In this document: positions 5,467-38,394 of the stretch, piece after piece
How the letters are laid out: each line of letters begins with the position of its first letter
Position numbering within the stretch: the stretch's first letter is position 1
NCBI GenBank assembly: GCA_050122795.1
Contig: JASFIG010000002.1
Coordinates: 1-44,462 of the forward strand
Length of the DNA: 44,462 nt
From: Desulfobacterales bacterium
Lineage (GTDB): Bacteria; Desulfobacterota; Desulfobacteria; Desulfobacterales; JAHEIW01
Direction of reading: 5' to 3'
The notes under the pieces: model-generated
What the model was told of the DNA's origin: nothing
The model's database searches: none
The model's input: only the letters and a program-made list of their open reading frames with translations
Translations under genes and position numbers: made by a program

Positions 5467-5689
5467 GGTGTCAGGTGTCAGTGGTCTGGTTCAAGGGTTC
5501 AGCGTTCACGGTTCAAAGGTTAAAAAGATAGTGAAAAAAGGTTAGATGTCAGAATATAGAGCAACAGTTTTAAATTGGAAACTTTAACTGAAACTTCGGA
5601 ACCGAGAACCCCTGAACCCTGAACTTCTGAACCCAGAACCCTGAACATTGACGACAGAGACCAGCAGCGATATGCTGAACCTTTGAACC
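5467..5689. repeat. heptamer-word inverted repeat (GGTGTCA/GGTTCAN x8 versus NCTGAAC-type x11), long imperfect hairpin
   Basis: Left arm 5467-5521 reads GGTGTCA GGTGTCA GTGGTCT GGTTCAA GGGTTCA GCGTTCA CGGTTCA AAGGTT. Right arm 5589-5668 is period-7 ...CCCTGAA CCCTGAA CTTCTGA ACCCAGA ACCCTGA... A terminal AACCTTTGAACC (5678-5689) is the exact complement of 5510-5521. Tracked ORFs 5520..5705 and 5584..5796 merely read through it. Confidence 0.85.
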
Positions 5690-10549: not shown

Positions 10550-10593
10550 AAAACCGTCGTTGTGCTCAACTGACAAATGAAGCCACTATCGAA

Positions 10594-10628
10594 AATCCGC
10601 AATCCGCAATCTAAAATCCAAAATCCGG
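10594..10628. repeat. single-armed heptamer tandem repeat AATCCGC x5 (degenerate)
   Basis: AATCCGC AATCCGC AATCTAA AATCCAA AATCCGG abuts the stop codon (10630-10632) of the rubrerythrin-like gene. I saw no complementary arm nearby. Confidence 0.65.
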
Positions 10629-11621: not shown

Positions 11622-12620
11622 ATGGTTGAAAAAAAGAAAAGCACACAGAGAAGTCAGGTGGGATTTGGATCGACTTATAAAAAAGTTCGAGCCGGCAGCG
11701 GAGACTTTCGGCACGGAGTTGAATCTGTTCTCGGTGGCCAGGTATGGCTGGTAAAGCCGGATCAGAAAGCCAAGGCTGCCAATCCCTGTCTGTGGATGGA
11801 GGCCGGGGTCGTCAAGTTCAAAAACTGTGACAATTATTATGATTGCACCAGCTGTAAATACGATCATGCCATGGACAACAAAGTTGCCAAGGGCAAGCAA
11901 ATCAGCTGGCAGGAAGCCATGAAAAGACGACCGGACCTGGATCGGGTTTGCCGCCACAGCCTGACCAACCGCATCGAAAAGCGGATGTGTGCCTATGACT
12001 ATGAATGCGGCAAATGTGACTTCGACCAGTATTTTGAGGATATCTGGACCACCAAAACCAAAGCCATCCCCGGCGAGATGCAGCAGATAAAAGGTTTCGA
12101 TGTTCCCATGGGCTACTATTTCCATAATGGCCATGCCTGGGCTCGAATCGAAAGCGGCGGCTATATTCGCGTGGGTCTGGATGACTTTGCGCTAAAAGTG
12201 TTGGGCGAAGCCGATGCGCTTGATCTGCCATTGATCGGCAAAGAATTGGACCAGAGCAAAGCAGGCTGGGGGCTGAGGCGCAAGGATAACCTTGCAGACG
12301 TGCTGTCGCCTATAGATGGCGTTATCATGGAGGTCAATTCCAAGGTCAGGGAAAATCCCAAGCTGGCCAATCATGAGCCTTACGGCGACGGATGGTTGTT
12401 TATGGTACGCACCCCAGATGTCAAGCGCACCATGAAGCAGTTGATGGTCGATCAGGACAGTCTGAGCTGGATGAACACCGAAGTCGGTGAGCTGGAAGGT
12501 ATGATTGAAGAGGTGGCAGGTCCCTTGGCAGCTGATGGCGGTTATCTGGTGGATGACATTTACGGAAATTTGCCGGATCTGGGCTGGAACAATCTAACCC
12601 ACAAGTTCTTACGAACTTAG
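11622..12620 (+). CDS. Cys-rich protein with C-terminal glycine-cleavage-H (GcvH)-like fold, paralog 1
   Basis: 332 aa with AAGGAG SD. There are two copies of C-x12-C-x5-C-x2-C (CLWMEAGVVKFKNCDNYYDCTSC and CRHSLTNRIEKRMCAYDYECGKC). The GcvH-like core follows: GHAWARIESGGYIRVGLDDFA...SPIDGVIMEVN...EPYGDGWLFMV. Confidence 0.8.
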   Translation: MVEKKKSTQRSQVGFGSTYKKVRAGSGDFRHGVESVLGGQVWLVKPDQKAKAANPCLWMEAGVVKFKNCDNYYDCTSCKYDHAMDNKVAKGKQISWQEAMKRRPDLDRVCRHSLTNRIEKRMCAYDYECGKCDFDQYFEDIWTTKTKAIPGEMQQIKGFDVPMGYYFHNGHAWARIESGGYIRVGLDDFALKVLGEADALDLPLIGKELDQSKAGWGLRRKDNLADVLSPIDGVIMEVNSKVRENPKLANHEPYGDGWLFMVRTPDVKRTMKQLMVDQDSLSWMNTEVGELEGMIEEVAGPLAADGGYLVDDIYGNLPDLGWNNLTHKFLRT

Positions 12621-12709
12621 TTATCCGTTATCTGTTATTGGTTGTGGGTAAATAAATGACAGTTCATAGTGTCATCCCGAATAACCAATAACCACTAACC
12701 AATAACTAC
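12621..12709. repeat. heptamer-word inverted repeat (TTATCNG x4 versus CCAATAA x4) with a central 6-bp mini-hairpin
   Basis: Left arm is TTATCCG TTATCTG TTATTGG TTGTGGG (12621-12648). The centre holds ATGACA...TGTCAT. Right arm is CGAATAA CCAATAA CCACTAA CCAATAA (12678-12705). It fills the whole spacer between the two GcvH-like paralogs. Confidence 0.8.
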
Positions 12710-22171: not shown

Positions 22172-22303
22172 AAATCCGAAGCACGAAATCCGAAATTCGA
22201 AACAAATTTTAAATTTTAAATCCCAATGTTCAAAATACGTTTTGAATTTCGGTCATTTGATATTCGGATTTGTTTCGCATTTCGATATTCGCATTTCGGA
22301 ATT
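22172..22303. repeat. heptamer-word inverted repeat (AAATCCG/AAATTCG-type versus CGGATTT/CGCATTT-type)
   Basis: Left arm is AAATCCG AAGCACG AAATCCG AAATTCG AAACAAA (22172-22206). Right arm 22238-22303 contains GTTTTGAATTTCGG, the complement of CCGAAATTCGAAAC, then CGCATTT CGATATT CGCATTT CGGAATT. It lies between hdrA and mvhD. ORFs 22216..22578 and 22226..22465 are read-through artefacts. Confidence 0.75.
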
Positions 22304-22356: not shown

Positions 22357-22788
22357 ATGGCTGAGAACTTTGAACCAATCATTATTGCCTTTTGCTGCAA
22401 TTTCTGAGGGTACACGGCGGCGGACCTGGCAGGTTCGATGCGGTTGCAATACCCGACCAATGTAAGGATCGTTCGGGTGCCGTGCACGGGAAAAGTCGAT
22501 GTGATTCATGTCATGCGGGCATTTGAAAAAGGTGCCGACGGCGTGGCCGTCATAGGATGCCTCGAAGGAGAGTGCCATTTTAATGCCGGCAACATGATGG
22601 CCCGCAGACGGGTGGAGCAGGCACAGAAAATACTGGATACAGTCGGCATTGGTGGCGATCGGGCCCAGATGTATAACCTGTCATCCAGTGAAGGCCCGCG
22701 GTTTGCGCAGTATGCCACAGAGATGACCCAAAAAATAAAAGAATTGGGCCCCAATCCGATCCGGGTTGCTAAAAACAAGGCGGCCTGA
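22357..22788 (+). CDS. mvhD: MvhD/VhuD-like [2Fe-2S] electron-transfer subunit; predicted selenoprotein
   Basis: ATG 22357 (GGAGGA SD). MAENFEPIIIAFCCNF-TGA-GYTAADLAGSMRLQYP runs in frame with tracked ORF 22438..22788. TGA 22405-22407 replaces the third Cys of the MvhD motif FCCNWC.Y.GAD.AG. Confidence 0.85.
22421..22437 (+). promoter_or_regulatory. candidate SECIS-like hairpin downstream of UGA 22405
   Basis: CGGACCT - GGC - AGGTTCG forms a 7-bp stem (one G-U) with a G-containing triloop, starting 14 nt after the UGA stop-like codon. Hand-folded. Confidence 0.4.
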
Positions 22789-22794
22789 AAAATG

Positions 22795-22910
22795 ATTGAA
22801 TATTGACTATTGAATATTGCAGATTGAAATGCGGAAAATAGTCAAATTTAAATTATAAATAGCTTCCCGGTGAAAATATTCATTTTTCAATTTTAAATAT
22901 TCAATTCAAA
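22795..22910. repeat. heptamer-word inverted repeat (ATTGAAT x5 versus ATTCAAT-type)
   Basis: Left arm is ATTGAAT ATTGACT ATTGAAT ATTGCAG ATTGAAA (22795-22829). Right arm 22872-22910 reads GAAAATATTCATTTTTCAATTTTAAATATTCAATTCAAA. It lies between mvhD and metV. Confidence 0.7.
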
Positions 22911-28767: not shown

Positions 28768-28958
28768 GGGTTCTGGGTTCCGGGTTCAGAGGTTCAAAGG
28801 TTCTGGGTTCAGTCTGTGGCTGCTGGTCTCTGGTTGCTGGCAGCTGGCAGTTCATCAAGTGGTCATTGGCTCTTAGCCAGAAGCCAAAAGCGAGTAGCCA
28901 GCGGCCTTAGCATTGAAACCTTGAAAGCTTGAACCCTTGAACGCTGAACCTATGAACC
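28768..28958. repeat. heptamer-word inverted repeat, 12 + 12 heptamers with two nested word types
   Basis: Left arm is GGGTTCT GGGTTCC GGGTTCA GAGGTTC AAAGGTT CTGGGTT CAGTCTG TGGCTGC TGGTCTC TGGTTGC TGGCAGC TGGCAGT (28768-28851), followed by a 22-nt loop. Right arm is TAGCCAG AAGCCAA AAGCGAG TAGCCAG CGGCCTT AGCATTG AAACCTT GAAAGCT TGAACCC TTGAACG CTGAACC TATGAAC (28874-28957). The inner TGGCAGC/GCCAG words and outer GGTTCA/TGAACC words pair in nested order. Confidence 0.9.
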
Positions 28959-29088: not shown

Positions 29089-31224
29089 ATGGAATCTGCC
29101 TTGATTTCGCCGGCTGCTGCAACCGTTGCCGGCATTCCGACGATCGTTTTTTCGATCCTCATCCCGCTTGTCGGTGTTGCCATTTTTGTCTACATCATGT
29201 ATCGCCGGGTCCAGCCGCTGATAAAAGCGGCACCCGATGAGCGCTTTGGTTGCATCGGGCAACGGATCGGCCTGACGCTTAAAATCTGGCTGGCCCAGTG
29301 GCGTCAGCCTCGCTATTTGCTGGCCGGAATTATCCATATTTTTATTTTTGCCGGTTTTATTATCTTGGGCGCCCGTTCTACCCAGCTGGTCATACTGGGT
29401 TTTTCGGAAAATTTTGTTTTACCCGGATTCAGCGGGAATTTTGGCCAGTTCTATAATGTCGTAAAAGATTATGCTGCCACCTGGGTTTTGATCGCCTGTG
29501 TGATCGCTGCCGTGCGCAGGGGCATTTTTAAGCCCTCACGGTATGCCGTGCCACCCCGTTACGGAAAAGATCACACCGCAGAGGCCATTTTTGTTCTGGG
29601 TTTGATCTCAACGCTGATACTCACCGAAAGCCTGTTCGAAGCCAGCCTGGTGGCTGCCGAGACCCAGAAGGGGTTGCATGCCGAATGGCCTGCATCCCTG
29701 AGCCTGGCCTGGTTTTTCAGCCATATGCTCAGCGGCGCTTCTCAAACGGCACTGCAAAATACGCATCTGATCACCTATTTTATTCATGATCTGACCTTTT
29801 TCTTTTTCCTGTGCTTTTTGCCCCTGGGCAAGCATTTTCATGTGATCACCTCTATTTTCAACGTGTTTTTCATGCGGGTTGAAAAGGGCACTGTCAAGCC
29901 GGTGCGGCACGGGATCTCCGATGAGCAGCTGGATGACCTTGACTCATTTGGCGTCAAGGTCTTTGAAGATTTTACCTGGAAACACATGCTTGATTTTTAT
30001 TCCTGTGCCGATTGCGGTCGTTGCTCGGATCGCTGCCCGGCCAATGCCGTCGGGCGCCCGCTCTCGCCGCGTTTCATTTCCATAAAAGGGCGCGATTATG
30101 CCTTCAAGCATTATCCGCTGATCAGCGGCAACGGCGCAGGGGCCAAACCATTGATCGGTGGTACTTACGACGATGATGAAATCTGGTCATGCACCACCTG
30201 CGGGGCCTGCGAACAGGAATGTCCCCTCGGGATTGAATATATCGACAAGATAGTGGATTTACGTCGCGGTATGGTCGATGACGGCTTGGTACCCCAGTCC
30301 CTGCAAAAGCCATTGGGCGCTCTTGAAAAACGCGGTAATCCTTGGGGAAAGATGGAAAGAAAGCGCGCGGATTGGACCAAGGCACTTGCCGAAGAAAACG
30401 GTGTCAAAATTCTTGAAAAGGGTGCTGAGGCCGAAACTCTTTACTTTGTAGACAGTATTACGTCCTTTGACGACCGCATGCAGGAGATTGCACGTTGCAC
30501 TGCACAAATTCTAAATGCAGCCGAAATTGATTTCGGCATTCTCGGCAAAGCTGAAAAAGACAGCGGCCACGAAGCCAGGCGCTTCGGCGAAGAGATGCTG
30601 TACCAGGACCTGCGGGATCAAAATACGGAGGCCATCCTGAATTCGGGCGCGCAACGCATTGTGACCGCCGATCCGCACGCCTTCAATGCCCTGAAAAAGG
30701 ACTACAGCGAGCTGCCGCCGGTGGAACATATCAGCCAGACGGTTGTGCGTCAGGTTCAATCCGGCAAGATTCAGCTCAGAGCGGCCGAAGATCCCTCCAG
30801 GGTCTATGTCTACCATGATGCCTGCTATCTGGGCCGCCACAATAATGTCTATGATGATCCACGAAATGCTATCGATTCGATACCCGGAATCAAACGAATT
30901 GAGATGACCGGCAACTGCCGGGATCGGTCCTTTTGCTGTGGCGGCGGCGGGCTGATGCTCTTTTATGAGCCTGAGGAAGAACAGCGCATGGGCGTGCTGC
31001 GGGTTCAAATGGCTCAAAAATCAGGCGCCAACGTTATTGTGACCGCCTGTCCGTTTTGCCTGCTGAACATAGAAGATGCCATCAAGGTCAGCGGCCTGGA
31101 AGGCCAGATGGAAGCACTGGACCTTACGGAACTGATTGCTCAGCATCTCGTTACAGATGACAGAGTTCAGAGGCCAGATGACAGAAGTCAGAATTCAGAG
31201 GACAGAGAACAGATGTCAGAATAA
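29089..31224 (+). CDS. membrane-bound Fe-S oxidoreductase (N-terminal polytopic domain + 2x[4Fe-4S] + two CCG domains; HdrD/GlpC/DsrK-like), ETF-linked
   Basis: 711 aa with about 5-6 N-terminal TM helices. Motifs: CADCGRCSDRCP, CTTCGACEQECP, and the CCG motifs CCGGGG and CPFC. The last ~23 aa (DDRVQRPDDRSQNSEDREQMSE) are encoded by a heptamer repeat, so the native C-terminus is uncertain. Confidence 0.85.
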   Translation: MESALISPAAATVAGIPTIVFSILIPLVGVAIFVYIMYRRVQPLIKAAPDERFGCIGQRIGLTLKIWLAQWRQPRYLLAGIIHIFIFAGFIILGARSTQLVILGFSENFVLPGFSGNFGQFYNVVKDYAATWVLIACVIAAVRRGIFKPSRYAVPPRYGKDHTAEAIFVLGLISTLILTESLFEASLVAAETQKGLHAEWPASLSLAWFFSHMLSGASQTALQNTHLITYFIHDLTFFFFLCFLPLGKHFHVITSIFNVFFMRVEKGTVKPVRHGISDEQLDDLDSFGVKVFEDFTWKHMLDFYSCADCGRCSDRCPANAVGRPLSPRFISIKGRDYAFKHYPLISGNGAGAKPLIGGTYDDDEIWSCTTCGACEQECPLGIEYIDKIVDLRRGMVDDGLVPQSLQKPLGALEKRGNPWGKMERKRADWTKALAEENGVKILEKGAEAETLYFVDSITSFDDRMQEIARCTAQILNAAEIDFGILGKAEKDSGHEARRFGEEMLYQDLRDQNTEAILNSGAQRIVTADPHAFNALKKDYSELPPVEHISQTVVRQVQSGKIQLRAAEDPSRVYVYHDACYLGRHNNVYDDPRNAIDSIPGIKRIEMTGNCRDRSFCCGGGGLMLFYEPEEEQRMGVLRVQMAQKSGANVIVTACPFCLLNIEDAIKVSGLEGQMEALDLTELIAQHLVTDDRVQRPDDRSQNSEDREQMSE

Positions 31225-31319
31225 AGCGAGAAGGCAAATTGAGGCGAATATTTATCTGTCTTCTGAACTCTGGTATCTGTCCTCTGTTAGTGAATAACCA
31301 ATAACCAATAACGAATAAC
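31154..31319. repeat. heptamer repeats: CAGANNN x10, complementary NNNTCTG x5, then GAATAAC x4
   Basis: CAGATGA CAGAGTT CAGAGGC CAGATGA CAGAAGT CAGAATT CAGAGGA CAGAGAA CAGATGT CAGAATA spans 31154-31223. TTATCTG TCTTCTG AACTCTG GTATCTG TCCTCTG spans 31252-31286. GAATAAC CAATAAC CAATAAC GAATAAC spans 31292-31319. Confidence 0.85.
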
Positions 31320-31338
31320 GACATTCCGGAGGAATAGT

Positions 31339-33132: not shown

Positions 33133-33176
33133 ATAGCCGTCTGCATGAGGGGTGCCGCCGGACGGCTATTTTTTTC
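33133..33176 (+). terminator. Rho-independent terminator after etfA
   Basis: ATAGCCGTC (33133-33141) pairs with GACGGCTAT (33161-33169), followed by TTTTTTT. Confidence 0.75.
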
Positions 33177-33244: not shown

Positions 33245-34510
33245 ATGAAAAAAGGGGCCACTTATAAGACAATACGGGTGTTTGCGGTTATCCTGGCTGC
33301 TATTCTCATTGCCACCGTACTGGTCATCCTGCGGCCCAAAGCCGAACGCCGCGTGGTGGAAGACAAGGGTCGGTTGGTTGAAGTATTTGCCGCCCGGGCC
33401 GAAAAAGTTCAGATGGTCATTGAGGCTTACGGCACGGTTAAACCGCGCGAGGAATTGCTACTGGTGGCCGAGGTCCGGGGCCAGATTGTTGCCACGGACC
33501 CGACCTTTGAAGAGGGAAATTTTATTACCCGTGGAACCCGGCTGATCCAGATTGATCCACGCACTTACGAACTGGACGTGCAACGGACCAAAGTCCAAAT
33601 CAAACAGGCCCAGGCGGAGATCAAACGTCTTGAGCAGGAGGTCTTAAACCTGCAGGCGCGCATCAAGATTGCCCAATCTGACGTTGCGCTTGCTAAAAAT
33701 GAATATTTCAGATTGAAAAAATTGATCGATCGAAAAGTGATCGCCCAGTCCACCCTGGATAAAACCGAGCAGCAATATCTGGCAAGCCAGGAGCGCTTGC
33801 AGGCGCTCGAAAACCAGCTGGCCCTGACGGGGCCCCAAAAAGAGCAGCTCCTGGCCCAGCGGGATATGGCCAAAGTGATGTTTGAAACGGCTAAGCTGGA
33901 TCTTGAAAGATCCGCTATTATCGCGCCTTTTGACGGTTGGGTTCTGGCAAAGACGATTGAAGTCGGACAGCACGTCACCATCGGGCAGAGCATGGGCCGA
34001 ATCTACAGTACCGGCGAATTGGAAATCGAGGTGCGAATTCCGGTCAAGGATTTTAAGTGGCTGCCGGCGGATATGAACGGGGGAGCCCGCATCGAGGCAG
34101 ATGTTATCTTCGAAAATCAAGGTGCGCAGATCCTCTGGAACGGGCAGGTGACGCGGGTCAAAGCGGAGATGGATGACAAAACGCGCACGCTGCCGGTGAT
34201 CATCGAAGTTGACGCATTATCAGACTCCGGCGAAAACAGCAATGCTTTGCGCCTGCGGCCGGGTATGTTTGTAACTGCCAGGATTAAAGGCAAAGCGGTG
34301 AGCCAGGCCTTCGTCCTCCCGCGCCACCTCGTTTACCCGGGAGATCGGGTTTATACAGTTGAGGGGGACCGTCTCAAAATTAAGTCCGTTGATATATTGC
34401 GCGCGTACAAGGATTCAGTCATCGTCAGCCAGGGTCTCTCGGACGGCGAGCGCATTATCAAAACACCGCTGTCGGACGTCACAGATGGTATGCTGGTTCG
34501 TATTAAGTAA
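33245..34510 (+). CDS. RND efflux periplasmic adaptor (membrane fusion protein, HlyD family)
   Basis: Start set at MKKGATYKTIRVFAV (GGAG SD). It has an N-terminal anchor helix, a coiled-coil hairpin (QAQAEIKRLEQEV...), and beta-barrel/lipoyl-like segments. Confidence 0.85.
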   Translation: MKKGATYKTIRVFAVILAAILIATVLVILRPKAERRVVEDKGRLVEVFAARAEKVQMVIEAYGTVKPREELLLVAEVRGQIVATDPTFEEGNFITRGTRLIQIDPRTYELDVQRTKVQIKQAQAEIKRLEQEVLNLQARIKIAQSDVALAKNEYFRLKKLIDRKVIAQSTLDKTEQQYLASQERLQALENQLALTGPQKEQLLAQRDMAKVMFETAKLDLERSAIIAPFDGWVLAKTIEVGQHVTIGQSMGRIYSTGELEIEVRIPVKDFKWLPADMNGGARIEADVIFENQGAQILWNGQVTRVKAEMDDKTRTLPVIIEVDALSDSGENSNALRLRPGMFVTARIKGKAVSQAFVLPRHLVYPGDRVYTVEGDRLKIKSVDILRAYKDSVIVSQGLSDGERIIKTPLSDVTDGMLVRIK

Positions 34511-34608
34511 CAGAGGTCAGAGGACAGAGGACAGGGGTCAGAGGACAGGGGACAGAGGTCAGAGAATAGAGAACGGATAGGGGTCAGAGGGCAAAAGACA
34601 GAGGATAG
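34511..34608. repeat. CAGAGGN heptamer array x14 (5' arm of the four-helix-bundle cassette)
   Basis: CAGAGGT CAGAGGA CAGAGGA CAGGGGT CAGAGGA CAGGGGA CAGAGGT CAGAGAA TAGAGAA CGGATAG GGGTCAG AGGGCAA AAGACAG AGGATAG runs from the base after the MFP stop to the base before ATG 34609. It supplies the SD GAGGA (34601-34605). Confidence 0.9.
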
Positions 34609-34974
34609 ATGAGCATTCAGAGCGTAAAGGATCTCGAAGTTTACCGGCTCGCATTTGAGCTGGCAATGAAAGTATTTGAACTTACCAAAAAATTTCCGAA
34701 GGAAGAAAAATATTCGTTAACGGATCAAATTAGAAGATCATCTCGATCTGTGCCAGTAAACATTCGAGAAGGATATGCAAAAAGAAGATATGAAAATTTA
34801 TTTATAAGGCATTTAAATGATGCAATGGGTTCATCTGAAGAAACCAGGGGCTGGTTAGATTTTGCGCTTGGTTGCGGCTATATCGATCAAGACGAACGTG
34901 ACGGCCTGGATAAAAAATATGATGAAGTCAATGCAATGTTATACAGTTTAATGAATCGTTGGGAGTCACTGTAG
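34609..34974 (+). CDS. four-helix-bundle protein (23S rRNA intervening-sequence protein / Avd family)
   Basis: 121 aa. DLEVYRLAFELAMKVFELTKKFPKEEKYSLTDQIRRSSRSVPVNIREGYAKR...FIRHLNDAMGSSEETRGWLDFA fits the pattern of this family (TIGR02436 / PF05635, from memory). Confidence 0.8.
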   Translation: MSIQSVKDLEVYRLAFELAMKVFELTKKFPKEEKYSLTDQIRRSSRSVPVNIREGYAKRRYENLFIRHLNDAMGSSEETRGWLDFALGCGYIDQDERDGLDKKYDEVNAMLYSLMNRWESL

Positions 34975-34976
34975 CA

Positions 34977-35094
34977 CAGAGGACAGATGGCAGAAGACAG
35001 CTACAGAAACAAGAATTGGAAAGCGAAGGACTGCCTTCTGACTTTCGATCCTTGATTTCTGATATCTGTCCTCTGACTTCTGACCTCTGACCTC
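34977..35094. repeat. 3' arms of the cassette: CAGAGGA-type x4 followed by complementary TGACCTC-type x9
   Basis: CAGAGGA CAGATGG CAGAAGA CAGCTAC spans 34977-35004. TGCCTTC TGACTTT CGATCCT TGATTTC TGATATC TGTCCTC TGACTTC TGACCTC TGACCTC spans 35031-35093, followed by A9 and ATG 35104. Confidence 0.9.
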
Positions 35095-35103
35095 TAAAAA
35101 AAA

Positions 35104-38100
35104 ATGAAAAAACTGGGTGAGTGGTCGATAAAAAATCACGTGACCGTTAACCTGGTCATGGTCTTCATCATCGTGGCCGGGCTGTTGACGGTATTGAAGA
35201 TGCGCCGGGAGATCTTTCCGCAGTTTGCGTTGGATATGATTGTGGTCAGCGTGGACTACCCGGGATCGAGTCCGGAAGAGGTGGAAGAGGGGATCTGCAT
35301 CAAAGTTGAAGAGCAGATCGAAGGCATCGAGGGAATTGATCGCATGATATCCACCGCCCGCGAAGGCAACGGTGAAATCTTGGTGGAGCTCGAGTCCGGC
35401 ACGGATGTTGCGAAAGTGCTGGATGAGATTAAAGCGGAAGTGGATCGGATCGATACCTTCCCCACCGAAGCCGAGGAGCCGCTGGTGCTTGAGATCATCG
35501 AGCGCGACCCCACCATTTACATTGCCGCTTATGGCGATGTGTCTGAAAGACACCTGCGGCAGGCAGCTGAAAAAATTCGTGATGACCTGCTGGATGCGCG
35601 CATTGTATCGCAGATAGAAACACAAACCGAACGGGGTTTTTTGTCCTCTTTTAAATTCAAGCAACCCGAAGTCATTACCCAAATCGAGCTGGTGGGCGTG
35701 CGGGATTATGAAATTGCGGTTGAAGTGTCTGAAGACAACCTGCGCCGTTACGGGCTTACCTTTGACCAGGTGGTCAGCGCCGTGCGGGCCGGCAGTATCG
35801 ACCTGCCGGGCGGAAGAATCAAGACCGACCAGGGGGAGATTCTGGTCAGATCCAAGGGGCAGCTTTATGTCGGCAAGGAATTTGAAGCCATTCCATTGAT
35901 TACGTTGGCCGACGGAACCGTGGTACAGCTTGGGCAGGTGGCTGCTGTAATTGACGGATTTGCGGACGTCGACATCAAAGCGCGCTTTAACGGCAAGCCG
36001 GCCGCTGTGGTGCGGATCAGCCGCACCAGCGAGCAGGATATCGTTGAAATTGCCGACATCGCGCGAAATTACGTTGCCGTCCACGACTACAGGATGAACT
36101 CAAACATAGACCTGGCCATCTGGGGCGACCTGTCGATTCTGGTGCGCGATCGCATCGATTTGATGCTGCGCAACGGAGTGCAGGGTATTACGCTGGTGTT
36201 TATTGCTCTGGCCCTGTTTTTAAACTTTCGACTGGCTTTCTGGGTGGCCATTGGTATTCCTATTTCGTTTATGGCAGCTTTTTTGGTGCTCAACGCCTTC
36301 GGTCAAACCGTTAACATGATTTCGCTGTTTGCCTTCATTATGACTCTGGGTATCCTGGTGGACGATGCCATTATTGTGGGGGAAAATATCTACACGCACT
36401 ATAATCGGGGCAAATCACCTTCAGCGGCTGTGGTCGACGGCCTCAAGGAGGTCGGCGGTCCGGTGGTTATGGCAGTCTCAACCACGGTTGTCGCCTTTTT
36501 GCCGTTGATGTTTATTGCGGGTATCATGGGTAAATTCATTGCAGTGATGCCCATGGCGGTGATTATCATTTTAATTGTATCCCTGGGTGAAGCGCTGATC
36601 ATCCTTCCCGCGCACCTGCACCATGCATTATCGCGATCCGAGAAAAAAAAGGTTAAAGACAATTCGTGGCTTGAGCGTTTGCGCAAACGCGTTGAGGGAC
36701 TTCTGCAATACACGATTCATCGGATCTATACGCCGGCCATAAACTACGTGGTCAAGAACCGTTACTTTACCTTTTCCATCGGCATTGGTGTGCTCATCAT
36801 CAGCCTGGGTATCGTGGCCGGCGGCTATGTGCCCTTTGTATTTTTTCCCAAAGGCGAAAGTGACTGGCTGATCGCCGAAATCAACTATCCGCTGGGCACT
36901 CCGATCAGCTTCACTGAAAAAACCATTCAGCATTTTGAGAACAAAGCGTTTGATTTGAATACCGCATTCCCCGAGTTTTCGGAAAAAAACGGTGATCTGG
37001 TTCAAAACACTTTTGCCCTGGTGGGGTTGATCCCGCGGCGTGACTGGAAACCTCCGGAAATCGGCAGCCATGTCGGGGAGGTCTGGGTGGAATTGGTATC
37101 CTCCGGGCAGCGCCCGGGCGTGTCCACAAATGACATTTTGAACCGCTGGCGCAGTCTGGTCGGCGAATTGCCCGGTGTCGACCGGCTGGGGTTTCTCACG
37201 CTGGAAGGGGGGCCGGCCGGGAATGCGATCGAAATTCAATTAAGCGGAAAAGATTTTGACCAGCTTAGCCTGGCCGCCGATGAGCTTAAAAAAGAGATCG
37301 AAACCTACCCCGGAACCTATGATATTTCCGACGATTTTAAACCCGGCAAGCAGGAGAAAAAGCTGCGGGTTAAACCCGGTGCGCGTTCTATCGGGGTGAC
37401 CATGCGCGGGCTTGCACGACAGGTACGACAGGCCTTCTACGGAGAAGAGGTTCTGCGTATTCAGCGTGGCCGGGATGATGTCAAGGTGATGGTCCGCTAT
37501 GCGGACCAGCAGCGCAGCAGCCTTTCCGGGTTTGACGAAATGCGGATCCGGACCGAAGACGGCCGCGAAATTCCCATCGAAGAGGTGGCTGATATCACCC
37601 ACGGCCGGGCCTACTCGATCATCCATCGGGTGGATCGTAAAAGGACCGTAACGGTGGTATCCGATATTGATGAAAACACGGCCAACGCCAGCCAGATTGT
37701 GGCCGACCTGAAAGCCAACTTCTTGCCTCAGCTGGTGGAGCGCTATCCGGGTGTTAACTATGATCTGGAAGGGCAGGCCAAACGCACGGGCGAGTCAATT
37801 GACAGCATGCAGTCCGGATATCTGCTGGCCATGATGGGTATTTTTTTGTTGCTGGCCAGCCAGTTTAGATCCTATATCCAGCCGGTCATCATTATGACGG
37901 CAATTCCCTTCGGCCTGATCGGGGCCATCTTCGGTCATCTGGTCATGGGCAAGGAATTTACGATCGTCAGTCTTTTTGGCATTGTGGCGCTTTCCGGAAT
38001 TGTGGTGAACGACTCCCTGATCTTAATTGATTTTATCAACCGGGCAGTGAGCAGCGGCGTCGATGTCGAAACGGCAGTGGTGCAATCCGGCAAGGCCCGG

Positions 38101-38394
38101 TTCAGACCGGTTTTGTTGACGTCCATCACCACCATTGCCGGGCTGTTGCCGATCTTACTGGAACGCAGTTTTCAGGCCCAGTTTTTAATCCCCATGGCCA
38201 TCAGCATCTGTTTCGGCCTGCTGGCGGCCACCTTCCTGACCTTGCTGTATGTGCCGGCGCTTTATCTGATTGTGCGCGATCTTAAAAATGTCGTGATGGC
38301 CAGATTCAAGGGTGCTGAATTAGCGCCTCATCCATCTGCAACCGAAGATCAGATGGCAGTTGACAGCGATCCGGTCATAGAAGAAAGAAAATAG
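35104..38394 (+). CDS. RND-family efflux transporter permease (AcrB/CzcA superfamily)
   Basis: 1096 aa with a 12-TM RND layout. Motifs include SLFAFIMTLGILVDDAIIVGENI and GIVALSGIVVNDSLILIDF. No obvious SD, only an A9 leader. Antisense ORF 34966..36084 is a shadow. Confidence 0.9.
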   Translation: MKKLGEWSIKNHVTVNLVMVFIIVAGLLTVLKMRREIFPQFALDMIVVSVDYPGSSPEEVEEGICIKVEEQIEGIEGIDRMISTAREGNGEILVELESGTDVAKVLDEIKAEVDRIDTFPTEAEEPLVLEIIERDPTIYIAAYGDVSERHLRQAAEKIRDDLLDARIVSQIETQTERGFLSSFKFKQPEVITQIELVGVRDYEIAVEVSEDNLRRYGLTFDQVVSAVRAGSIDLPGGRIKTDQGEILVRSKGQLYVGKEFEAIPLITLADGTVVQLGQVAAVIDGFADVDIKARFNGKPAAVVRISRTSEQDIVEIADIARNYVAVHDYRMNSNIDLAIWGDLSILVRDRIDLMLRNGVQGITLVFIALALFLNFRLAFWVAIGIPISFMAAFLVLNAFGQTVNMISLFAFIMTLGILVDDAIIVGENIYTHYNRGKSPSAAVVDGLKEVGGPVVMAVSTTVVAFLPLMFIAGIMGKFIAVMPMAVIIILIVSLGEALIILPAHLHHALSRSEKKKVKDNSWLERLRKRVEGLLQYTIHRIYTPAINYVVKNRYFTFSIGIGVLIISLGIVAGGYVPFVFFPKGESDWLIAEINYPLGTPISFTEKTIQHFENKAFDLNTAFPEFSEKNGDLVQNTFALVGLIPRRDWKPPEIGSHVGEVWVELVSSGQRPGVSTNDILNRWRSLVGELPGVDRLGFLTLEGGPAGNAIEIQLSGKDFDQLSLAADELKKEIETYPGTYDISDDFKPGKQEKKLRVKPGARSIGVTMRGLARQVRQAFYGEEVLRIQRGRDDVKVMVRYADQQRSSLSGFDEMRIRTEDGREIPIEEVADITHGRAYSIIHRVDRKRTVTVVSDIDENTANASQIVADLKANFLPQLVERYPGVNYDLEGQAKRTGESIDSMQSGYLLAMMGIFLLLASQFRSYIQPVIIMTAIPFGLIGAIFGHLVMGKEFTIVSLFGIVALSGIVVNDSLILIDFINRAVSSGVDVETAVVQSGKARFRPVLLTSITTIAGLLPILLERSFQAQFLIPMAISICFGLLAATFLTLLYVPALYLIVRDLKNVVMARFKGAELAPHPSATEDQMAVDSDPVIEERK

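Follow-up and report, generated by a model that had tools for sequence, protein, structure and literature searches.

An intervening-sequence-like gene cassette with complementary heptamer arms proposed for the spacer of a Desulfobacterales efflux operon

What occupies the 593-nt gap between the genes for a membrane-fusion protein (MFP; i.e., the periplasmic adaptor of an RND-type pump) and its RND efflux permease in contig JASFIG010000002.1 of a Desulfobacterales bacterium (assembly GCA_050122795.1)? We analyzed positions 1 to 44,462 of this contig (the whole 44,462-nt stretch is hereafter called the window). An earlier reading made without database searches (hereafter the sequence-only reading) had found in the gap an open reading frame (ORF) of 121 amino acids (aa) for a four-helix-bundle (4HB) protein, bounded by the MFP stop at 34510 and the permease start at 35104; all of these coordinates were confirmed. 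It had also proposed a cassette system colonizing operon spacers and resembling the intervening sequences (IVSs) of 23S rRNA, and this core proposal is supported by the comparison of the junction among relatives and by the flanks of the protein family. On this evidence, we consider it probable (roughly 0.6) that the gap is an IVS-like cassette, i.e., a promoterless 4HB gene with its own complementary heptamer arrays that has settled between two genes of a host operon. The cassette is best filed as an ORF-bearing IVS element outside rRNA, the heptamer arms of such elements being general and specific to the protein subfamily.

The MFP-RND junction and its variants

The MFP stop codon (TAA, 34508-34510) directly adjoins the first heptamer (Table 1). 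The 98-nt 5' arm, described in the sequence-only reading as a CAGAGGN array throughout, is such an array up to 34573 (about 9 clean units); the remainder (34574-34608) is degenerate with a phase slip, and it is this part that contains the Shine-Dalgarno sequence of the 4HB gene (GAGGA, 34601-34605). The four CAGAGGA-type heptamers downstream of the ORF and the nine complementary ones that follow them were recovered from the sequence, by Tandem Repeats Finder (TRF) and by inverted-repeat searches. The four direct copies have two relationships: with the 3' arm they form a local hairpin, of which they are the 5' side, and they repeat the 5' arm in direct orientation beyond the ORF. TRF reported period-7 arrays at 34510-34571 (ACAGAGG, 7.9 copies) and 35065-35095 (TCTGACC), together with period-21 versions of the junction arrays that extend to 35031. 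The A run before the pump gene, earlier counted as nine, comprises eight residues and reaches nine only if the A of the ATG is included. No plus-strand promoter or terminator was detected between 33000 and 35400, and Rfam at gathering thresholds found no known RNA family and no rRNA in the window.

A metagenome scan with the MFP alignment yielded 80 orthologous junctions; 22 of these are filled and 34 are empty, and the remaining 24 are truncated at a contig end. In the loci (numbered with the prefix L) whose 4HB proteins are 79 to 98% identical to that of the window, the order ETF-MFP-4HB-RND is the same and the arms are always present; carriers of the gene at this junction invariably had heptamer arms, and a copy without repeats was not found there. 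Array length is unstable, with 5.5, 8.5, or 14 upstream units in strains with 98% identical cargo proteins and a one-unit difference between the arrays of L007 and L009. The arrangement is kept in Desulfobacterales, cultured Desulfosarcina widdelii PP31 (L021; NZ_AP021875.1, about 3,233,054-3,238,416) included, down to 48% MFP and 65% RND identity, and the 4HB protein is still 67 to 70% identical where the MFP identity drops to 48%.

Empty and filled sites both occur among close relatives, as the sequence-only reading would have it; for example, L095 (empty) and L094 (filled) are equally close to the window (MFP identity, about 92%). Some empty junctions retain hairpins without cargo, which are built from the word of the window's cassette (L098), from GTTATTN/NAATAAC (L095, L101, and L106), or from a third type, GGGGCAT/ATGCGCC (L103, L105, and L136), for which no matching filled cassette was seen. 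Others (L168, L173, L116, L125, L128, L143, L158-160, and L163) are compact and repeat-less, with gaps of -1 to 56 nt; some relatives with 49 to 66% MFP identity have such junctions, their gaps being -1 to 53 nt. The coexistence of filled, empty, and compact repeat-less junctions among relatives identifies the 4HB gene as an insertion.

The alignment of empty L098 with filled L016 showed that exactly 410 bp are missing between two copies of an 11-nt direct repeat, TGACAGAAGAC, one of which lies within the 5' arm of L016 and the other within the direct copies after the stop codon. No target-site duplication was seen at this filled/empty boundary, and the breakpoint falls inside direct heptamers. 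Several copies of the 4HB gene are decaying: L016 has an in-frame TGA, L097 a stop codon and a frameshift, L099 only a partial alignment, L115 and L139 internal deletions, and L100 a remnant. At the MFP-RND junction, the cassette is thus a gain/loss polymorphism with unstable arrays and deletion between direct copies.

The arrays also touch the gene upstream. In L007 (3931-3969), the MFP frame runs into the heptamer array, so that the repeats supply the C terminus and the stop codon; since this occurs in some relatives, changes in array length could alter the tail of the upstream protein. The MFP start in the window was chosen by homology to 421-aa gene calls of relatives, and the longest ORF begins at 33152.

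Table 1. Coordinates of the features at the junction and of two hairpins elsewhere in the window
Feature	Position	Strand	Basis
Upstream host gene, RND-type membrane-fusion (periplasmic adaptor) protein MFP	33245..34510	+	PF13437 and TIGR01730 matches
5' arm, ~14 purine-rich CAGAGGN heptamers	34511..34608	+	TRF periods 7 and 21; direct and inverted pairs
Cargo, 121-aa four-helix-bundle (4HB) protein of the subfamily named A-type	34609..34974	+	PF05635/TIGR02436 HMM matches
Four direct arm-word copies, CAGAGGA CAGATGG CAGAAGA CAGCTAC	34977..35004	+	Sequence, inverted-repeat search, fold
26-nt loop of the local 3' hairpin	35005..35030	+	Fold of 34970-35110
3' arm, nine pyrimidine-rich complementary heptamers (CTGACCT and similar)	35031..35095	+	TRF, inverted repeats, fold, duplex energy
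A8 leader directly before the pump ATG, no Shine-Dalgarno	35096..35103	+	Sequence
Downstream host gene, RND efflux permease	35104..38394	+	PF00873, E = 2.2e-168
Hairpin without cargo, CAGAGGA/TCCTCTG word	31153..31286	+	TRF, inverted pairs, fold
Hairpin without cargo, GTTATYN/NAATAAC (B) word	12618..12708	+	TRF, inverted repeats, fold

Arms and protein subfamilies across phyla

When one genome of each GTDB species was scanned, 80 loci with homologues of the 4HB protein (57 to 98% identity) were obtained; the flank counts given below refer to 82 such genes, of the A-type subfamily. The loci belong to Desulfobacterales, Omnitrophota, Planctomycetota, Atribacterota, Cloacimonadota, Bacteroidota, Neomarinimicrobiota, Acetothermia, and a Methanophagales metagenome-assembled genome (MAG), i.e., more than eight phyla, and the cross-phylum identity of the 4HB protein is 57 to 74%, the Methanophagales MAG included. 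A period-7 array lies upstream of 78% of the 82 genes, downstream of 68%, and on at least one flank of 89%, compared with 2.6% of random 150-nt windows of the same loci; periods of 5, 6, 8, and 9 were not enriched in the A-type flanks. Where both arrays are present, the upstream word is the reverse complement of the downstream word, with at most two mismatches, in 45 of 55 loci. In a word analysis of 48 loci (i.e., the window's own cassette and 47 from other genomic contexts), the two words of a cassette differed by 1.56 mismatches on average, against 2.36 after permutation, and none of 5,000 permutations reached the observed value. The upstream arrays of these 48 loci were purine rich in 45 and the downstream arrays pyrimidine rich in 44, with a median of about 6 to 7 units. 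The commonest A-type words (ACAGAGG, AAGACAG, and AAAACAG) are CAGA plus three mostly purine bases (the CAGA+RRN family). The gene and its arms are one unit, and this word family flanks A-type homologues in unrelated operons. Their orientation and polarity are fixed, with the purine array upstream on the coding strand and its complement downstream. The expectation that other members of the family would be armed was borne out: in more than 60 unrelated operon settings, from more than eight phyla, members are flanked by inverted arrays built from this family of words.

These contexts have in common their position rather than their function. Both neighbors are on the strand of the 4HB gene in 62 of the 71 loci with both neighbors called, the upstream neighbor is codirectional in 69 of them, and the median gaps to the two neighbors are 74 and 71 nt. 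Outside the MFP-RND junction, the 64 upstream neighbors match 90 Pfam families and the 64 downstream neighbors match 77 (e.g., CdhC/CdhD, sugar-nucleotide enzymes, type II secretion ATPases, gas-vesicle proteins, FolD, hydrogenase, and histidine biosynthesis). They are ordinary operon genes and not integron-like cassette arrays. Since its neighbors are unrelated, the cassette has no functional tie to efflux and occupies the spacers of unrelated operons. In the 14 loci with atypical surroundings (i.e., long gaps to the neighboring ORFs, neighbors on the opposite strand, or no arrays), Rfam detected no rRNA and only three tRNAs, all beside copies without arms. One locus, L019 (2492-2863; Methanophagales MAG contig JAFNKG010000050.1), carries a 73% identical A-type gene with about 16 downstream units, antisense to both neighbors, and represents either an interdomain transfer or a misbinned contig.

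A second subfamily (B-type) occupies the same junction. Intact PF05635 proteins of 128 to 131 aa, about 30% identical to that of the window, were found there in L122, L140, and L102, and decayed remains in L108, L127, and L144; every B-type copy has GTTATTN upstream and NAATAAC downstream. Close B-type relatives (76 to 99% identity) are numerous, and all four proteins that were looked up (82 to 88% identical to that of L140, including that of Olavius symbiont Delta 1) lie at an ETF-MFP-4HB-RND junction, so that the arm specificity of the B-type rests on one site in many lineages. When all family members in 881 kb of collected loci were clustered, the A-type comprised 99 genes, flanked by CAGA-type words, and the B-type 20, flanked by GTTATT-type words; a further cluster consisted of two genes from two other contexts, with the words CAGGTTA or AAGCTTC, and two singletons had no arrays. 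Because the A and B clusters keep their own words, even at the same junction, the arm word appears to follow the protein subfamily and not the host. One allele, L100 (1632-2011), is a chimera, in which a B-type 5' arm (TAGTTATTTGTTATTCG) is followed by a GC-rich palindrome, the last ~30 A-type codons, and an A-type hairpin.

The diversity of sites bears on a different reading, in which the cassette is a domesticated host module, the arrays setting the MFP:RND expression ratio through mRNA processing or stability inside the operon and the 4HB protein being a host RNA-binding regulator that is retained to this end and has ceased to be mobile or selfish. Such a role would account for the retention of the junction across Desulfobacterales to 48% MFP identity, with a 4HB protein that is conserved and constrained (dN/dS, the ratio of nonsynonymous to synonymous substitution rates, is 0.05 to 0.18), for the low copy number of the subfamily per genome, and for a pump leader without a Shine-Dalgarno sequence, the translation of which could depend on structure. 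It would not account for the same cassette in more than 60 unrelated operons without a shared function, nor for relatives with 92% MFP identity that lack the gene or carry the other arm type (L095), others being compact and repeat-less. Decaying copies (L016, L097, L099, L115, and L139) and the replacement of the gene at the same site by a 30% identical subfamily also argue against it, and we consider domestication fairly unlikely.

The protein itself, the sole PF05635 family member encoded in the window, matches the profile hidden Markov models (HMMs) PF05635 ("23S rRNA IVS protein") with an E value of 6.7e-35 and TIGR02436 ("four helix bundle protein") with one of 3.6e-32; the scores, 120 and 110.8 bits, are far above the curated cutoffs of 33.8 and 24, respectively. 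Its relatives number 7,608 at E values of 1e-5 or lower, of which the best 120 are 69 to 98% identical, and structures have been solved for two of them (PDB 2GSC, i.e., XCC0516, E = 4.8e-14; and 2RLD, E = 3.8e-10). Its similarity to these two lends support to a four-helix-bundle fold, which is pentameric in the family members of solved structure. An AlphaFold model built from a shallow alignment is mostly helical, with low confidence (predicted local distance difference test, 65). Pairwise dN/dS values among the junction orthologues show strong purifying selection on a protein that is unusually conserved across phyla. HMM scans found no nuclease, recombinase, or transposase motif or domain in it, and PADLOC gave no defense-system match for either the A-type or the B-type subfamily.

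A relationship to Avd, the accessory protein of diversity-generating retroelements, was also considered. Avd is a pentameric, basic, nucleic acid-binding protein (PMC10053308) of the same four-helix-bundle superfamily. The 4HB protein matches it weakly (bAvd PF22296, 25.4 bits; DivGenRetAVD NF033474, 20.1 bits; PHROG Avd, E = 6.9e-8), and the Pfam and NCBIfam scores are below the curated cutoffs of 40 and 80 bits, respectively. An orphan Avd would also be out of place among the neighbors ETF, MFP, and RND, in an operon with neither a reverse transcriptase nor template/variable repeats, where the repeats of the gap are solely heptamer arrays flanking the gene. No reverse transcriptase domain was found in the 10 other large ORFs of the window that were scanned, and reverse transcriptases and template/variable repeats are likewise absent from the 64 other contexts. 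The gene as an orphan Avd is refuted for practical purposes. In view of the subfamily-specific words and the nucleic acid-binding Avd relatives, the likeliest and most economical guess is that the 4HB protein recognizes its own arms, whether in RNA or in single-stranded DNA; such binding would serve maintenance or spread of the element.

More distant relatives on cyanobacterial plasmids (36 to 53% identity) have a purine-rich upstream arm and a complementary downstream arm made of other G/A-rich words. On a plasmid of Picosynechococcus sp. PCC 7003 (NZ_CP016476.1; L196, 1465-1894), the 4HB gene lies between cas10/cmr2 and cmr3, and its spacers of 35 to 36 nt consist of a GAGGAGATAA-type arm and its complement. 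PF05635 genes inside cas operons have been reported previously, the repeats being left without comment (PMC3936711), and L196 reproduces this arrangement.

Pairing of the arms and fate of the transcript

The 3' arm had been expected to pair either locally, with the direct copies just upstream of it, or with the 5' arm around the ORF, and both options were found by inverted-repeat searches and in the predicted fold. Inverted-repeat pairs join 34511-34610 to 35037-35096 with 74 to 94% complementarity, and a local pair joins 34977-34995 to 35057-35075. The predicted RNA minimum free energy of 34505-35110 is -185 kcal/mol (z = -7.5), with the outer arms paired around the ORF, and the local 3' hairpin alone (fold of 34970-35110) has a z score of -6.65. 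The duplex energy is -89.9 kcal/mol for the 5' and 3' arms and -52.4 kcal/mol for the local direct copies and the 3' arm. Mononucleotide shuffles are a weak control for arm pairing (-32 against -48 kcal/mol), because purine-rich and pyrimidine-rich arms pair through composition alone. When the arms of 61 A-type cassettes were aligned without gaps, sense-strand mismatches compatible with G.U pairing outnumbered A.C mismatches 107 to 52 in the best alignments (32 to 8 by locus), a bias that may be taken as supporting evidence for pairing at the RNA level.

Knowledge of ORF-bearing IVSs in 23S rRNA dates back to the early 1990s (e.g., in Coxiella burnetii and Leptospira; S23p ORF). The likeness of the cassette to them is closer than the sequence-only reading had proposed. 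In the Coxiella IVS, the S23p start is immediately preceded by an AGAAGA "SD", two or three copies of GACAGAT, and a GACAGAA, in this order (Warrier et al. 2016, PMC4990558); one of the A-type words, CAGATGA, becomes GACAGAT on rotation. The copy number of these heptamers varies among strains, and RNase III cleavage has been mapped at the first repeat (PMC4990558). The two systems share a PF05635 protein and complementary termini enclosing the ORF and, for Coxiella, the heptamer word. They differ in the host transcript, which is a protein-coding operon here and rRNA helix 45 in these IVSs, and in the arms, which have 9 to 14 units here, whereas Coxiella has 2 to 4 upstream units and a paired stem of 28 bp. 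Moreover, the ORF is under purifying selection here, whereas that of Coxiella is reported to be decaying and is probably untranslated. Strictly speaking, the cassette is no 23S IVS, since it lies outside rRNA.

By analogy with Coxiella, the cassette may work as follows. It would be cotranscribed with the MFP-RND operon, and the purine-rich, Shine-Dalgarno-like 5' arm would drive 4HB translation as the RNA emerges from the polymerase. After synthesis of the 3' arm, it and the 5' arm would anneal to a long, imperfect duplex RNA stem around the ORF, in which the Shine-Dalgarno sequence of the 4HB gene would be hidden. RNase III would then cut this stem, as it cuts at the Coxiella heptamers, freeing the cassette RNA and leaving the pump cistron with a short A-rich leader. 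Removal by RNase III would explain why an operon tolerates such an insertion, as rRNA does. In the DNA, cassettes could be expanded, contracted, and deleted through slippage and recombination within the arrays, with heptamer hairpins without cargo as the outcome. The pump gene has no Shine-Dalgarno sequence, as had been noted before, and in cassette-bearing relatives it is preceded by CTGAGAAAAA-ATG. Several, but not all, of the compact cassette-free junctions carry GGAG, AGGTGA, or GAGAG before the pump.

Alternatively, the inverted arrays might act in DNA, as recombination or cruciform sites comparable to terminal inverted repeats, with the 4HB protein as a DNA-binding mobility factor and RNA pairing as an incidental property. 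Empty and filled alleles do differ exactly at direct heptamer copies, array copy numbers change fast, chimeric alleles such as L100 exist, and the occurrence of the cassette in archaeal and bacterial MAGs implies horizontal transfer. A DNA element of this kind would be expected neither to show the strong orientation bias noted above (upstream gene on the same strand in 69 of 71 loci) nor to hold its purine/pyrimidine polarity fixed relative to the coding strand, and the sense-strand G.U bias points to a constraint on the transcript. Together with the lack of nuclease or recombinase motifs in the 4HB protein and of visible target-site duplications, these features make a DNA-level element highly improbable.

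Several observations weigh against the IVS-like cassette itself. We infer RNA pairing and RNase III processing by extrapolation from one rRNA example. The stems are imperfect, with about 83% matches in the best segments and many transversions. The G.U asymmetry is reversed in four nonredundant B-type cassettes, and in the A-type it might instead stem from selection in favor of GAGG motifs within the 5' arm. RNAalifold found no compensatory changes in the 3' hairpins of 10 orthologues, where only the invariant CAGA/UCUG cores are paired; column-wise covariation is uninformative for this hairpin because of repeats and indels, and word-level permutation and mismatch-type counts were used in its place. 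About a fifth of the A-type genes have no detectable arrays, three of them adjoining tRNA genes. Among the plasmid relatives, L193 (Oscillatoria PCC 7112) has purine-rich arrays on both sides that are direct and not inverted, and L195 (Nostoc punctiforme) has period-8 arms (CAGGGGAG). The A-type subfamily is of low copy number (1 to 2 per genome). Our scans brought to light no candidate mechanism or enzyme of mobility, and the subfamily appears to be absent from viral contigs, which contained no relative when scanned with the family alignment and so lend no support to a viral origin. Finally, long vertical retention and strong purifying selection fit a host-beneficial gene as well as a selfish one.

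The tRNA genes beside A-type copies without arms lie directly upstream of the 4HB gene in two Phycisphaerae loci (L041, 2391-2474; and L061, 2395-2478) and directly downstream of it in an Omnitrophota locus (L065, 2898-2971). It is as if tRNA processing could take the place of the arms at these three sites.

Among other mobile units, integron cassettes, group I and II introns, and IStrons resemble the proposed IVS-like cassette as small codirectional operon inserts that need host transcription and have structured borders. Presence/absence polymorphism and decay are also shared, in a manner comparable to the homing-endonuclease life cycle. In contrast to these units, the cassette probably involves no integrase, attC site, ribozyme, or splicing, and the flanking RNA would not be religated; its borders are simple-sequence arrays rather than unique structured sites. 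A miniature inverted-repeat transposable element or other transposon-derived inverted-repeat element was considered and rejected, since the termini are simple-sequence arrays of variable length and neither a target-site duplication at the filled/empty boundary nor a transposase domain in the cargo was found.

Heptamer hairpins without cargo

The window contains 11 period-7 segments of at least 28 nt, against 0.05 in shuffled sequence (i.e., a ca. 200-fold excess). Its other heptamer hairpins had been taken for the same arms without cargo. This holds for the hairpin at 31153-31286 only, which lies in the spacer between the CCG/Fer4 and ETF-beta genes and overlaps the end of the upstream ORF with its 5' arm; the rest use other words, among them the B word at 12618-12708 (Table 1). 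A further B-word array (AATAACC) is located at 31293-31319.

Intergenic heptamers, often in inverted pairs, are on record for Xanthomonas and Nostoc (PMC4692102) and for Beggiatoaceae, cyanobacteria, and Bacteroidetes (PMC4679880). A further report ranks tandem heptamers first in abundance among the intergenic tandem repeats of prokaryotes, with "no clear clue" as to what they do (PMC6344855). The published repeats (e.g., the short tandemly repeated repetitive [STRR] sequences of cyanobacteria, TAACTGA of Beggiatoaceae, and the inverted GGGAATC pairs of Xanthomonas) share with those studied here a period of 7, confinement to spacers, and, often, an inverted arrangement. Strain-variable length and a patchy occurrence across distant phyla are further common features (PMC4679880, PMC4692102, and PMC6344855). 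The earlier reports mention no cargo and no protein family, whereas here a word family travels with a protein subfamily, and hairpins without cargo are derivable from filled cassettes (L016/L098). In the open-access literature we found no link between PF05635 and heptamers beyond the Coxiella report, although an earlier description elsewhere is possible.

The abundance of such repeats suggests another reading, in which heptamer hairpins are a general slippage product of the host and the 4HB gene is a passenger that lands or is retained in them, the arms having no role. The window does have intraoperon hairpins of at least six words without cargo, 23% of the other spacers near cassettes carry arrays too, and intergenic heptamer repeats are widespread and unexplained (PMC6344855, PMC4692102, and PMC4679880). 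Against this reading, A-type genes are bound to one word family across phyla although their hosts offer many, A and B genes keep their own words at one junction in close hosts, and arm words covary within cassettes. The same word also occurs in the rRNA IVS of Coxiella, a gammaproteobacterium not noted for heptamer-rich spacers. We regard a passenger gene in host-made repeats as quite unlikely.

If the gap is indeed an IVS-like cassette, one testable system would join IVS ORFs, the PF05635 family, and intergenic heptamer repeats. It would explain why members of this very large family are placed inside operons, cas operons included, and it predicts RNase III-dependent cutting of many operon mRNAs. 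The fast-changing arrays could then modulate the expression of neighboring genes, here that of an efflux pump. A bolder extension, which we offer as a speculation with the odds clearly against it, is that PF05635 genes with subfamily-specific arms form widespread autonomous cassettes that colonize transcribed spacers (i.e., operons, tRNA flanks, and rRNA helices). The 23S IVS would then be merely the best-known landing site, and many intergenic heptamer hairpins would be relics or landing pads. Recognition of its own arm word, in RNA or in single-stranded DNA, would enable the protein to promote spread or the formation of arrays, maybe in the manner of Avd, with a polymerase or reverse transcriptase being brought to the excised RNA and its flanking arms.

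Elsewhere in the window, period-7 arrays occupy the spacers at 5467-5646, 10588-10627, 12618-12708, 22172-22298, 22791-22906, 28768-28958, and 31153-31326. In the redox/ETF cluster, most spacers between codirectional genes carry such arrays, which are mostly paired as hairpins, and at least six words are represented in the window (GGTTCAG, AATCCGC, GTTATYN/NAATAAC, AAATCCG, ATTGAAT, and CAGAGGA). The CCG/Fer4-ETF-beta spacer (window positions 31225-31338) is hypervariable, with A- and B-word arrays in the window, L013, L098, and L109 and a GC-rich palindromic insert (GTAGGGCGGCCC...) in L007 and L008; none of its five distinct versions among relatives contains a 4HB ORF. In an MvhD-like ORF on the plus strand (22357-22788), the motif AFCCNF*GYTAADLAG includes an in-frame TGA, which is probably a selenocysteine codon; Rfam at the gathering threshold detected no selenocysteine insertion sequence. 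This MvhD-like gene is bracketed by the heptamer hairpins at 22172-22298 and 22791-22906.

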